The notes under the pieces were generated by a model, which had not been told where the DNA came from, made no database searches, and worked only from the letters and a program-made list of their open reading frames with translations. 64,000 nucleotides of DNA from an uncultured Bacilli bacterium (GTDB lineage Bacteria > Bacillota_I > Bacilli_A > RF39 > UBA660): positions 2,121 through 66,120 of the forward strand of contig CAKORV010000001.1 in NCBI GenBank assembly GCA_934101625.1. Reading direction: 5' to 3'. The stretch's first letter is position 1. Each line of letters starts with the position of its first letter. Position numbers and translations under genes: made by a program. This document shows positions 26,159 through 31,789 of this stretch, piece by piece.

Positions 26159-27916
26159 ATGGCTAAAAGAGAATTAGATGAAAAAACACAAATAATTGAA
26201 GAAGAAGGATTATATTTGGAAGAACCTGATAATAGTAAAAAGAAAAGGTTAATACTAATAATTATTATGTTAGTAATTTTATTGATTGTTTTGGTAAGTT
26301 ATGGAACTTATTCATGGTTGGATTGGTATCATAAAAGAATGATGATTAATATTGATATTAATCATGATGGAATATGTGATGTTAACTGTGATACCAATAA
26401 AGATGGAAAACCAGATTATAATGTAAGTCTAAAGAACTTTAAAAAGAGAAAGACACCTTTTTTTAATATAGATAAAGATGGAGATGGAAAACCTGATTTT
26501 AATCTTATTGATCAAGATACTAATGGAGATGGCAAGTGTGACTTAAATTGTGATATAGATAATGATGGTTGGCCTGAGACTAATTTAGACTTAGATGGTG
26601 ATGGAAAATGCGATTTAAATTGTGATACTAATGGTGATGGTAAGTGCGATTTAAATTGTGATACTGATAATGATCAAAAGTGTAATTATAATTGTGATAC
26701 TAATGGTGATGGAAAATGCGATTTAAATTGTGATACTAATGGAGATGGTAAGTGCGATTTAAATTGTGACACTAATGGAGATGGCAAGTGCGATTTAAAT
26801 TGTGACACTAATGGTGATGGCAAGTGCGATTTAAATTGTGATACTAATGGAGACGGAAAATGTGATTTAAACTGTGACACTAATGGAGATGGCAAGTGCG
26901 ATTTAAATTGTGATACTAATGGAGATGGAAAATGCGATTTGAATTGTGATACTAATGGAGATGGAAAATGCGATTTAAATTGTGATACTAACGGAGACGG
27001 AAAGTGTGACTTAAATTGCGATACTAACGGAGATGGCAAATGCGATTTGAATTGTGATACTAACGGAGATGGCAAGTGCGATTTAAACTGTGATACCAAT
27101 GGTGATGGAAAATGCGATTTGAATTGCGATACTAATGGAGATGGAAAATGCGATTTAAATTGCGATACTAATGGAGATGGAAAATGCGATTTAAATTGTG
27201 ATACTAACGGAGATGGCAAGTGTGATTTAAATTGCGATACTAACGGAGACGGAAAGTGTGATTTAAACTGTGATACCAATGGTGATGGCAAGTGCGATTT
27301 AAATTGTGATACTAACGGAGATGGCAAGTGCGATTTAAACTGTGATACTAATGGAGACGGAAAGTGTGACTTAAATTGCGATACTAACGGAGACGGAAAG
27401 TGTGATTTAAACTGTGATACTGATGGAGATGGTAAATGCGATAAAGAATGTGATACTGATGGTGATGGCAAATGTGATGTAAATTGTTCAAGTGCAGATA
27501 TAGATGATAAGGGAGAATATAGTATAACATTCTTAGATAAAAATAGTATGAATTATACTTCTATTAAACCAGGTTGGAGAGCATCTAAAACATTTACTGT
27601 AACTAATGATACTAATGCTACATTAAAATATGATATTTATTGGGATGAACTAATTAATGAATTTACTGAAACTAATAATTTATATTTTGGATTAATAAGA
27701 GATAGTAAAACAGTTATAGATATTTCGTCTAGTAGAGTTCCTTATCCAAATGGAAATAATAGAAGAGTACTTATGTTAAGTAATGTAGTTTTAAATCCAA
27801 AAGAAACACATACATATGAAATAACTTTATTATTTAAAGAGACTAATCAAAATCAAGATGTTGATAGAGGTAAAACATTTAGTGGTAAATTACAAATAGT
27901 TAATAAAGGAATGTAA
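26159..27916 (+). CDS. N-terminally anchored protein: DxDxDG/Cys-rich thrombospondin-type-3-like repeat stalk plus C-terminal TasA/camelysin-like module
   Basis: AGGGAG RBS. Cytoplasmic EEEGLYLEE, then a TM (LILIIIMLVILLIVLVSYGTYSWL). About 27 units of 12 aa (CDLNCDTNGDGK). C-terminal IKPGWRASKTFTVTN...KETNQNQDVDRGKTFSGKLQIV. Confidence 0.7.
   Translation: MAKRELDEKTQIIEEEGLYLEEPDNSKKKRLILIIIMLVILLIVLVSYGTYSWLDWYHKRMMINIDINHDGICDVNCDTNKDGKPDYNVSLKNFKKRKTPFFNIDKDGDGKPDFNLIDQDTNGDGKCDLNCDIDNDGWPETNLDLDGDGKCDLNCDTNGDGKCDLNCDTDNDQKCNYNCDTNGDGKCDLNCDTNGDGKCDLNCDTNGDGKCDLNCDTNGDGKCDLNCDTNGDGKCDLNCDTNGDGKCDLNCDTNGDGKCDLNCDTNGDGKCDLNCDTNGDGKCDLNCDTNGDGKCDLNCDTNGDGKCDLNCDTNGDGKCDLNCDTNGDGKCDLNCDTNGDGKCDLNCDTNGDGKCDLNCDTNGDGKCDLNCDTNGDGKCDLNCDTNGDGKCDLNCDTNGDGKCDLNCDTNGDGKCDLNCDTDGDGKCDKECDTDGDGKCDVNCSSADIDDKGEYSITFLDKNSMNYTSIKPGWRASKTFTVTNDTNATLKYDIYWDELINEFTETNNLYFGLIRDSKTVIDISSSRVPYPNGNNRRVLMLSNVVLNPKETHTYEITLLFKETNQNQDVDRGKTFSGKLQIVNKGM
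26585..27484 (+). repeat. in-frame 36-bp tandem repeat array (25 units; 20 core units at 26693-27412 encode identical CDTNGDGKCDLN)
   Basis: Unit starts at 26585+36n. DNA of the core units differs only at third codon positions. Confidence 0.95.
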
Positions 27917-27926
27917 GGGTGATATA

Positions 27927-29624
27927 ATGGCTAGTAATAAATTAAGTAAAGAAGAATTAAAAATCGTTGATGAAGATGGTTTATATTTTGAACAACATAA
28001 TGAAAAAAACAAAAAACAAAAGGTGTTGACCTATATAGTATTTATATTATTTATGATAGTTGTTGGAATAACTACATTTATAGTTGTTAATTATTTCTTA
28101 TCTAAAAGACAAACTTTGAATATTGATTTAGATGGAGATGGATGGGCAGATTTAAATATAGATACTGATGGAGATGGTATTTGCAATGTAAATTGTGATA
28201 CTAATAATGATAATAAACCTGATTATAATATAAGTTATAAAGGACTTAATTATGCGTATTTTAATTTAGATACTAATGGTGATAAAATTGCTGATAAAAA
28301 TTTAATTAATTTGGATACTAATAATGATGGAAAGTGTGATTTGAATTGTGATTTAGATAAAGATGGATTTCCTGAAATTAATTTAGATTTTGATGGTAAT
28401 GGTAAAGCAGATTTAAATATTGATTTAGATGGTGATGGAAAATGTGACATTAATTGTGATGTTATTGGAATTAAAGAGCCTAATTTAAATGTAGATATTG
28501 ATGGTGATAATAAGCCCGATGTTAATATTGATATTGATGGAGATAATAAACCTGATGTTAATATTGCTTATGGAAATGACTATAAAAAGGCAGTATTTAA
28601 TATAGATAAAGATGGAGATGGAAAAGAAGATTTTAATTTAATTAATCAAAAGCCTAAAAAAGCAACTGCTACTTGTGGTATAAATTGTGATAAAGATGGA
28701 GATAATATTCCTGATATTAATATTGATATGGATGGAGATGGAAGCCCAGATTTAAATTTAGCAACAATAGAAGATGGGATGGCATACTTAAATATTGATT
28801 TAGATGATGATGGAATTGCTGATATGAATGTTGATACAGATGGTGATTTGATGCCAAATATTAATGTTGATGTTGATGGAGATGGAAAGGCAGATACTAA
28901 TTTAGATGTTAATAAAGATGGAAAAGCAGATGTTAATGTAGATACTGATGGAGATTGGAAAGCAGATTTTAATTTATTAAATCAAGATACTAATAGTGAT
29001 GGTAAATGTGATTTAAATTGTGATAAAAATAAAGATAATTGGCCAGATTATAATATTGATTTAAATGGTGATGGTATTCCTAATATGAATATTTCACTTG
29101 TTAGTGAAAATAGTGGAGATGCAAATAGGTCTGCTAATAATGATGGTAAGATTGATACTAATGTAATTAATGAATATGTTTTATATGGAAGAGATGTTGT
29201 TAAAAATGTTGAAATATCTAATGGAGAAAGTAAACATTATGCATTATCATTAGTTGATAGTGGTAACAAATTAGATGTTAATAAATTAATTCCTGGCTGG
29301 AAGGATAGTAAAGCATTTACTATTAAAAATACATCTAATGAAGTTAGAACATATGAAGTTGGATTTACTGATATTATAAATGATTTTTCTTGGGAAAATA
29401 GATTATATTTTGGAGTTAAATTAAATGGACAAATTGTAATAGATCCAAATTTAGGAAGAGTTGGATATGCTGTAAATAATGGAGAAACATTTATGAAGAA
29501 TATGACTATTAATCCAGGTGAAACTCATTCTTATCAAATTGATTATGAATTTAAAAATACTGGTTCTATAAATGATAGTAATAAATTATTTTATGCTAGA
29601 CTTGATGTAGTTGTATTAAAGTAA
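27927..29624 (+). CDS. paralogous stalk protein: degenerate DxDxDG repeats plus C-terminal TasA/camelysin-like module
   Basis: DEDGLYFEQ then a TM. NIDLDGDGWADLNIDTDGDGICNVNCDTNND... throughout. C-terminal LIPGWKDSKAFTIKN...NPGETHSYQIDYEFKNTG...LFYARLDVV. Confidence 0.7.
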   Translation: MASNKLSKEELKIVDEDGLYFEQHNEKNKKQKVLTYIVFILFMIVVGITTFIVVNYFLSKRQTLNIDLDGDGWADLNIDTDGDGICNVNCDTNNDNKPDYNISYKGLNYAYFNLDTNGDKIADKNLINLDTNNDGKCDLNCDLDKDGFPEINLDFDGNGKADLNIDLDGDGKCDINCDVIGIKEPNLNVDIDGDNKPDVNIDIDGDNKPDVNIAYGNDYKKAVFNIDKDGDGKEDFNLINQKPKKATATCGINCDKDGDNIPDINIDMDGDGSPDLNLATIEDGMAYLNIDLDDDGIADMNVDTDGDLMPNINVDVDGDGKADTNLDVNKDGKADVNVDTDGDWKADFNLLNQDTNSDGKCDLNCDKNKDNWPDYNIDLNGDGIPNMNISLVSENSGDANRSANNDGKIDTNVINEYVLYGRDVVKNVEISNGESKHYALSLVDSGNKLDVNKLIPGWKDSKAFTIKNTSNEVRTYEVGFTDIINDFSWENRLYFGVKLNGQIVIDPNLGRVGYAVNNGETFMKNMTINPGETHSYQIDYEFKNTGSINDSNKLFYARLDVVVLK

Positions 29625-31160: not shown

Positions 31161-31174
31161 ATAAGAGGTGTTTT

Positions 31175-31789
31175 ATGTACGATAAGAGACATAATTTAAC
31201 AATAAGTTTATTGAGTATAGGTATAGTTTTGGTTTCGGCTGTAGGACTTACTTTTGCTTATTTTTCAGCTAATGCTGAGACTGCTAGTGCTGTTAGTAAT
31301 TTGACCTCAGGAAAGGTTGGTAAAGTTGTTTTTGATGGTGGTGCTAATTTTACTACTTCTACTGATATTCAACCACCTTGGTCAGAGAGTAAAACGTTTA
31401 CTATTACAGTAGCGCCTTCTACAGTTAAACAAACTGTATATGTATGGCTTGATTATATTAATACAATTCCTGATTTGAAATGTAATGTTAAAGAAAATGA
31501 TGGAACAGCTAATAGTGTTAGTTTAACAACTACTGGTTCTAGTAAAGAAGATGTTGGTGAAACTACTACAGTAAAAGTTGTTGAAAAAACTTTTGAACCT
31601 AGTGAAACGACACAAACGGCAACATTTATTTTAACAATGTCATTACCTGAAACTGGTGTTGATCAAATATCTAGTGTTAATCAAACATTCAATGGAACTT
31701 TATATGGAAATTTGGGAAGTCAAGATAAGATTATTTATTATAATCATCAAAATCCTAATGGAGTAGCTACTCCACCAAATGCTGAGTAA
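31175..31789 (+). CDS. secreted TasA/camelysin-like protein with SipW-type signal peptide
   Basis: LLSIGIVLVSAVGLTFAYFSANAE, IQPPWSESKTFTITV, VNQTFNGTLYG. Confidence 0.55.
   Translation: MYDKRHNLTISLLSIGIVLVSAVGLTFAYFSANAETASAVSNLTSGKVGKVVFDGGANFTTSTDIQPPWSESKTFTITVAPSTVKQTVYVWLDYINTIPDLKCNVKENDGTANSVSLTTTGSSKEDVGETTTVKVVEKTFEPSETTQTATFILTMSLPETGVDQISSVNQTFNGTLYGNLGSQDKIIYYNHQNPNGVATPPNAE

Follow-up and report, generated by a model that had tools for sequence, protein, structure and literature searches.

The stretch of DNA analyzed here, 64,000 nucleotides (nt) from an uncultured Bacilli bacterium of the human gut (hereafter the window), carries at 26159-31789 five open reading frames (ORFs) in a row, all on the + strand, each of which encodes a protein with a common module of ~140 amino acids (aa). 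We conclude from fold and transitive profile evidence that this module very probably belongs to the TasA superfamily. On the reading that we favor, to which we give an even chance of being correct, the locus would specify an extracellular filament or matrix system in which small subunits are processed by a SipW-type signal peptidase and polymerize through donor strands, and stalk proteins root or nucleate the polymer. Two of the five products are large stalk proteins, A585 (26159-27916) and B565 (27927-29624), each made up of a stalk and a C-terminal TasA-like module, and the other three are small subunits, namely the Ala/Thr/Gly-rich jellyroll C208 (29790-30416), the D-type D193 (30579-31160) and the E-type E204 (31175-31789). 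An initial annotation made from the letters alone had described five consecutive + strand genes here, and our ORF coordinates agree with it exactly; the motifs that it quoted (IGATFAYFTSTAG, VGLTFAYFSANAE, IGATVAVHYF, PGW...FT[IV], ETGxNQ...GKxF and EEEGLYLE/DEDGLYFE) are all found in the translations.

A shared TasA-like module in five adjacent proteins

Pairwise BLASTP among the three small proteins and the last ~150 aa of A585 and of B565 returned E-values, which refer to a five-sequence database, of 9e-26 for A585-B565, 4e-15 for A585-D193, 4e-7 for A585-E204 and 1e-13 for C208-E204. These values point to true homology and not to chance resemblance, as had been proposed for the shared module, and they make D193 the small protein nearest to the module of A585. 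When the window was searched with a hidden Markov model (HMM) of the module, only these five proteins matched, among them the C-terminal part of A585 (E=9e-59) and E204 (E=4e-74), the latter a protein with many orthologues.

Outside the window, a word-indexed search with a profile of the five modules retrieved 62 unnamed metagenomic proteins, and an exhaustive HMMER search, run with a family profile of 45 sequences, retrieved 5,760 cluster representatives at E<=1e-3, 2,101 of them at E<=1e-10. The best 146 of these 5,760 representatives, all with E<=1e-22 to the profile, were compared with curated libraries: 49 matched the Pfam family Peptidase_M73 (PF12389; best 1.4e-10), 20 matched the SipW-dependent-type signal model TIGR04088 at E<=0.01, six matched the BsaA family TIGR04090 and three matched TasA. 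The five locus proteins themselves showed no match to TIGR04090 and, at E<=1, none to the TapA family model of NCBIfam. A similarity to Peptidase_M73 suggested earlier is thus seen among the relatives, whereas within the locus D193 alone gave a match to PF12389 and this fell short of the cut-off (E=0.012, 15.9 bits against 22.5, model positions 43-181 of 196).

These weak PF12389 matches, together with the name of the family, could be taken to mean that the locus encodes camelysin-type cell-surface metalloproteases. We reject this possibility as extremely improbable, given that an HExxH motif occurs in none of the five proteins, that C208 is devoid of histidine and that the peptidase assignment of CalY is itself regarded as a likely misidentification (PMC11580942).

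Structural comparison points instead to TasA, in agreement with the TasA/camelysin-like fold originally suggested. The AlphaFold2 (AF2) model of D193 (predicted local distance difference test score, pLDDT, 82.5) consists of an N-terminal helix (residues 3-37) joined by a linker of low confidence to a beta-sandwich (residues 55-190), and its top match in the PDB by Foldseek is the TasA fiber (8aur_A, E 1.1e-4, probability 1.0), with the archaeal bundling pilus 7ueg and the cannulae 9h8b and 7uii also listed. For B565 (mean pLDDT 82.2), the model comprises a helix at residues 25-63, a stalk with a regular 12-residue pattern and a beta-sandwich whose strands span residues 427-563; here the TasA crystal structures 5of2 and 5of1 rank first (E 2e-4 to 8.5e-4, probability up to 1.0), and 8aur and the Sulfolobus thread 7pnb are listed as well. 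The top local alignments between the family profiles and TasA in hhalign, although at a probability below 1%, paired the very motifs that the initial annotation had named. A phmmer search with TasA against 208 family sequences gave one weak match from which jackhmmer then spread; the database was tiny and we do not rely on this result.

Stalk proteins and small subunits

A585 begins with an acidic cytoplasmic motif, IIEEEGLYLEE (aa 12-22, nt 26192-26224), followed by a transmembrane helix at about aa 31-54 (nt 26249-26320) that ends in SYGTYSWL, a stalk at about aa 62-440 and the TasA-like module at about aa 442-585 (nt 27482-27916). The repeat region is a 36-bp tandem array of 24.8 copies (26595-27487, + strand), which translates into 25 repeats of DTNGDGKCDLNC; this 12-aa unit is a calcium-loop-type DxNxDGxxD motif carrying two Cys. 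The protein as a whole has 30 strict DxDxDG-type motifs, 54 Cys and an isoelectric point (pI) of 4.14. A 261-aa reverse-strand ORF with SPLVSQFKSH repeats (26686-27471), which has an equivalent in the same-species contig L001, is the antisense of this array and not a gene. B565 follows the same plan, with the motif IVDEDGLYFE (nt 27963-27992), a transmembrane helix at about aa 33-57 (nt 28023-28097), a degenerate DxDxDG stalk at about aa 64-415 (nt 28116-29171; 13 strict motifs, 10 Cys in the protein) and the module at about aa 425-565 (nt 29199-29624).

The acidic motif I[IV][ED]E[ED]GLY[LF]E precedes the transmembrane helix in A585, B565 and their orthologues, and distant homologues of the stalk proteins retain an E/D-rich patch at this place. 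Such a segment is unusual for the n-region of a signal peptide and hints at a partner in the cytoplasm. At E<=1e-5, 981 homologues of B565 were retrieved, most of which begin with an acidic cytoplasmic segment and then a transmembrane helix; among the best 120, all of them unnamed or labeled 'hypothetical protein [Bacilli bacterium]', ~95 pair 6-19 DxDxDG motifs with a match to the C-terminal module. The layout of acidic N terminus, transmembrane helix, DxDxDG repeats and C-terminal TasA-like module is unannotated yet common in uncultured Bacilli.

The stalk resembles a calcium-loaded wire of the thrombospondin type-3 or EF-hand-like kind in that it is acidic (pI 4.1) and built of 12-residue D-x-[DN]-x-D-G-x-x-D units with paired Cys, and from this spacing and acidity we infer that it binds calcium. 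The likeness to thrombospondin type-3 repeats is at the level of the motif only, and the membership proposed at first does not hold up in Pfam, where neither A585 nor B565 matches TSP_3 (PF02412) at E<=1. For the two stalks, NCBIfam returned nothing but low-complexity matches, Foldseek found no fold match for the stalk in the PDB, and sequence similarity to PDB entries was limited to an insignificant EF-hand loop (E 0.16). Within the B565 model, stalk residues 70-220 are predicted at pLDDT >90.

An architecture of this sort, with an anchor, a rigid stalk and a distal beta-sandwich that could serve as a binding domain, is typical of adhesins, and the large proteins might be stand-alone fibrillar adhesins beside which the small proteins are separate, non-polymerizing proteins of the surface or matrix, with no co-assembly. 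Two pairs of fetched contigs speak for this alternative (L020/L021 and L022/L023; we name the contigs that carry homologous genes L001-L024 and the homologous proteins by P-numbers), in that each has a large protein by a signal peptidase and no small subunit within 10 kb. We nevertheless judge it improbable, since in the species of the window both classes are always adjacent and since the distal module is homologous to small proteins of a family that polymerizes by strand exchange (PMC11580942; PMC9674648).

Among the small proteins, C208 has a SipW-type signal at aa 1-29 (nt 29790-29876) and the C-terminal tail FYTNDAKTGTTTKPDAQW. E204 has its signal at aa 1-28 (nt 31175-31258), ending VGLTFA↓YF (the arrow marks the predicted cleavage site here and below), and the conserved tail IYYNHQNPNGVATPPNAE. 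D193 has an N-terminal helix that ends GATVAVHYF and is without a C-terminal tail; in its monomer model, residues 33-52 are of low confidence and lie ahead of the first strand, which is compatible with a donor strand. A tail of the form [YF][YF]N..NP[NT]GT..KP.. occurs in 26/45 family members, in C- and E-types only (30330-30416 and 31730-31789 in the window), with no hydrophobic sorting segment after it.

Sorting signals that combine LPXTG with a hydrophobic tail are absent from the five proteins. The sole LPETG, at aa 157 of E204, is part of the ETGxNQ motif found across the family, with no hydrophobic tail behind it, and we rejected the locus proteins as sortase substrates. Elsewhere in the window, 14-23 kb downstream of the locus, which itself shows no LPXTG substrate, lie a protein with a sortase domain (45948-46778, - strand; PF04203 1.2e-11) and the active-site motif TLSTC, and a surface protein of 370 aa whose repeats are of the Flg_new_2 type (54122-55234, - strand).

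The region between B565 and C208 (29625-29789, + strand) holds an AT-rich hairpin with a T-run at about 29625-29652, read by eye and not called by the scanner, a promoter-like TTGATT-17-TATTAT with a TG extension at 29735-29763 and the strong ribosome-binding site AAAGGAGGT ahead of C208; a second, terminator-like hairpin with a T-run follows C208. C208 thus appears to be expressed separately and strongly, and because of this we propose it as the candidate major subunit. A gap of 14 bp separates D193 from E204.

Signal peptides and SipW-type peptidases

The initial annotation had assigned SipW-class signal peptides to the small proteins, and this was upheld in part. With TIGR04088, the first 53 aa of C208 reach 19.7 bits, above the cut-off of 19, whereas E204 stays below threshold (14.0 bits, E 0.044) and D193 gives no match; among close family members, 7/45 match the model at E<=10. 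The chain of the TasA fiber in the PDB (8aur) starts AFNDIK, and SipW cleavage therefore falls inside a G-x-T-x-A↓x-F motif. By analogy, cleavage would be expected at GATFA↓YF in C208, GLTFA↓YF in E204 and GATVA↓VH in D193.

A short charged N terminus followed by a hydrophobic helix, as in C208, which starts MGENKGQTIF, is also what one would see in type IV pilin-like or pseudopilin proteins cut by a prepilin peptidase. Across the family, however, we find no conserved G↓F/M-T-L-x-E motif and no conserved Gly before the helix, and the motif that is conserved stands at the C-terminal end of the helix, as it does in SipW substrates. No N_methyl or pilin HMM of Pfam or NCBIfam matched, nor did the window contain a pilus ATPase or PilC, and we reject a type IV origin as having next to no chance of being right. 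A 'pilin' paper on TANB77 that we considered deals with a Tad pilus and is unrelated to the locus.

The earlier observation that sipW, tapA and sorting signals are missing from the locus stood up to tblastn, NCBIfam and motif checks, all of which were negative. Our search for SipW homologues gave 779 matches, and three context look-ups (P0239, P0316 and P0313) all led to other lineages. A SipW-type peptidase is encoded next to family genes in four distant lineages (L011, L012/13, L014-17 and L020/21), in three of the four beside a large stalk protein. In L011, a 231-aa SipW-type peptidase directly follows P0060; in L012/13, a 489-aa SipW is followed by a 587-aa protein with transmembrane helix, stalk and C-terminal module; in L014-17, SipW precedes a 459-aa protein of the same design; and in L020/21, the 686-aa stalk protein P0409 comes first and SipW second. 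The L011 and L012 peptidases both match TIGR02228 at ~5e-31, and the enzyme after P0375 in L022 is of the ordinary LepB type. Two further features of these relatives were noted, namely a ~300-aa low-complexity cytoplasmic N-terminal extension of the SipW-type peptidase in L012 (11741-13210) and, in L024 (3556-6657), a larger family-like locus with two signal peptidases (one Peptidase_S24-type, one SipW-type), several genes for proteins of 180-190 aa and genes for proteins of 549 and 736 aa. Because SipW is adjacent in distant relatives, its absence here would be a lineage-specific unlinking: coupling to SipW is probably ancestral for the family, and the lineage of the window is better described as having an unlinked sipW than as a SipW-independent system.

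That SipW genes lie directly beside a large gene in L012, L014 and L020 raises the alternative that all five products are secreted matrix components with no anchor among them. SipW would then also cut A585 and B565, which would become acidic, calcium-binding cross-linkers whose TasA-like module joins fibers, giving a calcium-responsive hydrogel as has been proposed for AbpX-type proteins. The transmembrane helix of many large homologues indeed ends in a SipW-like motif, G-A-T-Y-S-Y or T-x-Y-x-Y (for example LGATYSYI), resembling the G-A-T-F-A-Y-F of the small subunits; the corresponding site in A585 reads SYGTYS↓WL, and a calcium-responsive matrix of the TasA superfamily has been described (10.64898/2026.01.04.697558). 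On the other side, B565 lacks a small residue at the equivalent -1 position (GITTFIVVNYF), the N termini of A585 and B565 are without a TIGR04088 match, and a conserved acidic segment of ~30 aa ahead of the transmembrane helix is atypical of a cleaved signal peptide and suggests a retained cytoplasmic function. We regard this alternative as doubtful.

A strain-variable cassette and its possible assembly

The window has a G+C content of ~26% and a gene content (pcrA/ligA, tilS, ftsH, parA/parB, ssb, rplM/rpsI) that looks like the origin-proximal part of a Firmicute core chromosome. Two large and three or four small genes lie between brkB and ltaS in L001-L010 and L018, and the suggested co-conservation of the five genes is seen as synteny in these contigs; a profile scan of genome contigs returned only three metagenome-assembled genomes, all of uncultured Bacilli/Firmicutes. 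L001 and L010 are essentially of the same species as the window. Their FtsH is 100% identical to that of the window at the aa level, TilS 99-100%, LtaS 97-99% and a 211-aa protein 97-98%, and the five locus proteins are 43-68% identical. In a global alignment with L001, nt identity is 81-96% over 21.9-25.2 kb, 28-76% over the locus (26.1-31.9 kb) and 96-100% over 32.0-37.6 kb, and comparison of the island (25200-31950) with L001, L010 and L005 places a sharp right border at about 31.9 kb. The locus is thus a hypervariable cassette that differs between strains.

Every gene of the island is divergent, and C208 is the most divergent (43-47% aa identity between strains), as well as being duplicated in L001 and L010. 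Relative to L001, the promoter and the 5' end of C208 with its signal peptide are 92% identical and the rest of the gene can barely be aligned. The orthologues of A585 in L001 and L005 differ in repeat number, with 18 repeats in L001 and 19-20 in L005 compared with 25 in the window. Variability of this kind would be expected if phage or the immune system exert selection on a surface structure that is exposed. It would fit a host- or phage-facing adhesin too; that the whole island varies, small genes included, argues against the large proteins being adhesins on their own.

Several neighbors of the locus deserve mention. A GGDEF diguanylate cyclase with an N-terminal transmembrane helix and an SBP_bac_3-like extracytoplasmic region (22431-24431) lies two genes upstream and is kept, along with BrkB, in all relatives, which echoes the cyclic di-GMP genes reported near bacterial AbpX loci (10.64898/2026.01.04.697558); the sensor part of this cyclase is more variable (81% nt identity) than the remaining flank. 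Directly upstream of A585 and within the variable island, a 242-aa ORF with several predicted transmembrane segments and no family match (25353-26081) is found in L005 at 62% identity and is absent from same-species L001. An AbiEi/AbiEii toxin-antitoxin pair (PF13338 and PF08843; 20410-21850) between 120-aa and 151-aa genes is absent at that position from L001 and L005, and the AbiE pair of L014 is unrelated to it. Between E204 and ltaS, at 31807-31890, a 40-bp unit is present 2.1 times with the internal palindrome TGAACAATTT...AAATTGTTCA; it looks operator-like and lies just upstream of a promoter-like site at 31906-31934.

The initial annotation thought that the system may be undescribed, which is not tenable for the system as a whole: TasA/BsaA-superfamily loci in which several paralogues occur with a signal peptidase and with anchor and tip proteins are on record (PMC11580942; 10.64898/2026.01.04.697558; PMC12337348). 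The BsaA/TasA family is widespread and divergent, one operon often holds several of its paralogues along with genes for signal peptidase and sortase, and its members form donor-strand polymers (PMC11580942). Compared with tapA-sipW-tasA of Bacillus subtilis (5OF1/5OF2/8AUR), the locus shares the jellyroll that is the top Foldseek match of both models, a SipW-class signal, above the model's cut-off in C208, with predicted cleavage inside a G-x-T-x-A↓x-F motif, and accessory proteins encoded beside the major subunit, and donor-strand polymerization would be expected of it. Unlike that operon, it has three small paralogues and not one, no sipW or tapA homologue and no significant direct sequence match to TasA; furthermore, TapA is a small secreted protein, whereas the accessory proteins here are transmembrane DxDxDG stalk proteins of ~570 aa with a C-terminal jellyroll.

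The sipW-bsaA-bsaB-bsaC operon of Clostridium perfringens is likewise a multi-paralogue TasA-like operon of an anaerobic Firmicute, and some relatives of the locus proteins match TIGR04090. The locus proteins themselves do not, and the locus has no vWA protein (BsaC) and no adjacent SipW or two-component system. Archaeal filaments of the TasA superfamily (AbpA 7UEG, CanA cannulae, AbpX and TafE/TafF of Tafi) appear among the fold matches. In their loci, genes for a major pilin and minor pilins are accompanied by those for a tip protein, for TafF as a proposed membrane anchor and for a signal peptidase I; tip and anchor proteins have been proposed for both the Tafi and the AbpX loci (PMC12337348; 10.64898/2026.01.04.697558), and calcium takes part in the assembly of CanA and AbpX. 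In contrast, the calcium-type motifs of the locus lie in a separate repeat stalk and not at a strand-groove interface, no DUF5305 or 10-transmembrane signal peptidase was seen here, and the host is bacterial. This makes the small subunits new representatives of a kind already known, that of TasA/BsaA, and what is new is the fusion of transmembrane helix, DxDxDG stalk and C-terminal jellyroll, the unlinked SipW and the hypervariability at the level of strains.

On the filament or matrix reading that we favor, C208, D193 and E204 of an uncultured gut Bacilli species would be exported by Sec, and a SipW-type (archaeal/ER-type) peptidase encoded elsewhere in the genome would cut their signals at G-A-T-F-A↓Y-F. 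The N-terminal strand freed in this way would polymerize the jellyrolls by donor-strand exchange, as in TasA and BsaA, with C208 as the putative major subunit and D193 and E204 as minor, adaptor or tip subunits. A585 and B565, presumably kept in the membrane by their N-terminal transmembrane helix, each bear a jellyroll on the tip of an acidic stalk that is ~350 aa long and composed of 12-residue DxDxDG-type, presumably calcium-binding loops. The stalk would let this module reach across the cell wall, and strand exchange would then attach the filament to it or nucleate the filament there. The AF2 model of B565 places a strand segment (aa 427-441) directly after the stalk and ahead of the core sandwich, and a protein tethered at its N terminus could therefore donate a strand to a neighbor. 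As an exposed structure under diversifying selection, the locus would be replaced or would diverge between strains.

Weighing against this reading are several of our results. The TM-scores of the fold matches are modest, at 0.45 and below; no locus protein reaches the PF12389 cut-off, with A585, B565, C208 and E204 lacking any match; the family profiles find nothing significant among PDB sequences (best AbpX, E~1); and hhalign of family profiles, one of them trimmed to the mature part, against TasA gives probabilities below 1%. Since direct sequence and profile comparisons with TasA are not significant, membership in the superfamily is argued from fold and transitive profiles. The N termini of D193, A585 and B565 do not match TIGR04088, and tblastn detects no SipW-type peptidase in the window (E<=10) or in the flanks of L001-L010 and L018, same-species contigs included, so that none has been located in the genome of the species. 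Calcium binding by the stalk has a motif basis only, with no match to TSP_3 (Pfam) or the PDB. Large homologues with a SipW-like end of the transmembrane helix and a SipW neighbor may be cleaved and released, not anchored. Finally, L020 encodes a large protein and SipW and no small subunit within 10 kb; large proteins can therefore work without small ones nearby.

A more specific picture, which we offer tentatively and consider possible but on the unlikely side, is a membrane-rooted, heteropolymeric pilus of the TasA type, which would amount to a third means of anchoring a Gram-positive surface filament, independent of both sortase and type IV machinery. Its anchor would span the wall with a stalk stiffened by calcium and tunable in length (18-25 repeats between strains) and present a jellyroll that exchanges strands with secreted subunits, and the cassette would be swapped between strains of a human-gut commensal under pressure from phage or immunoglobulin A.

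Known filaments of the TasA superfamily come almost all from cultured Bacillus, Clostridium or archaea, in a fast-moving field, and the locus reveals a large clade in uncultured gut Bacilli that the Pfam and NCBIfam models do not reach above cut-off, with 5,760 cluster representatives of the small subunit and ~1,000 stalk proteins. The 12-residue, Cys-paired DxDxDG stalk is a high-confidence prediction without a solved homologue. BsaA polymers are membrane-anchored by unknown means (PMC11580942), a gap that proteins such as A585 and B565 could fill, and the stalk-fused form is accordingly a testable candidate for how polymers of the TasA/BsaA type are held at the membrane. A hypervariable cassette set in a near-identical backbone is likely to serve in the human gut as a phage receptor or as a surface antigen particular to the strain.

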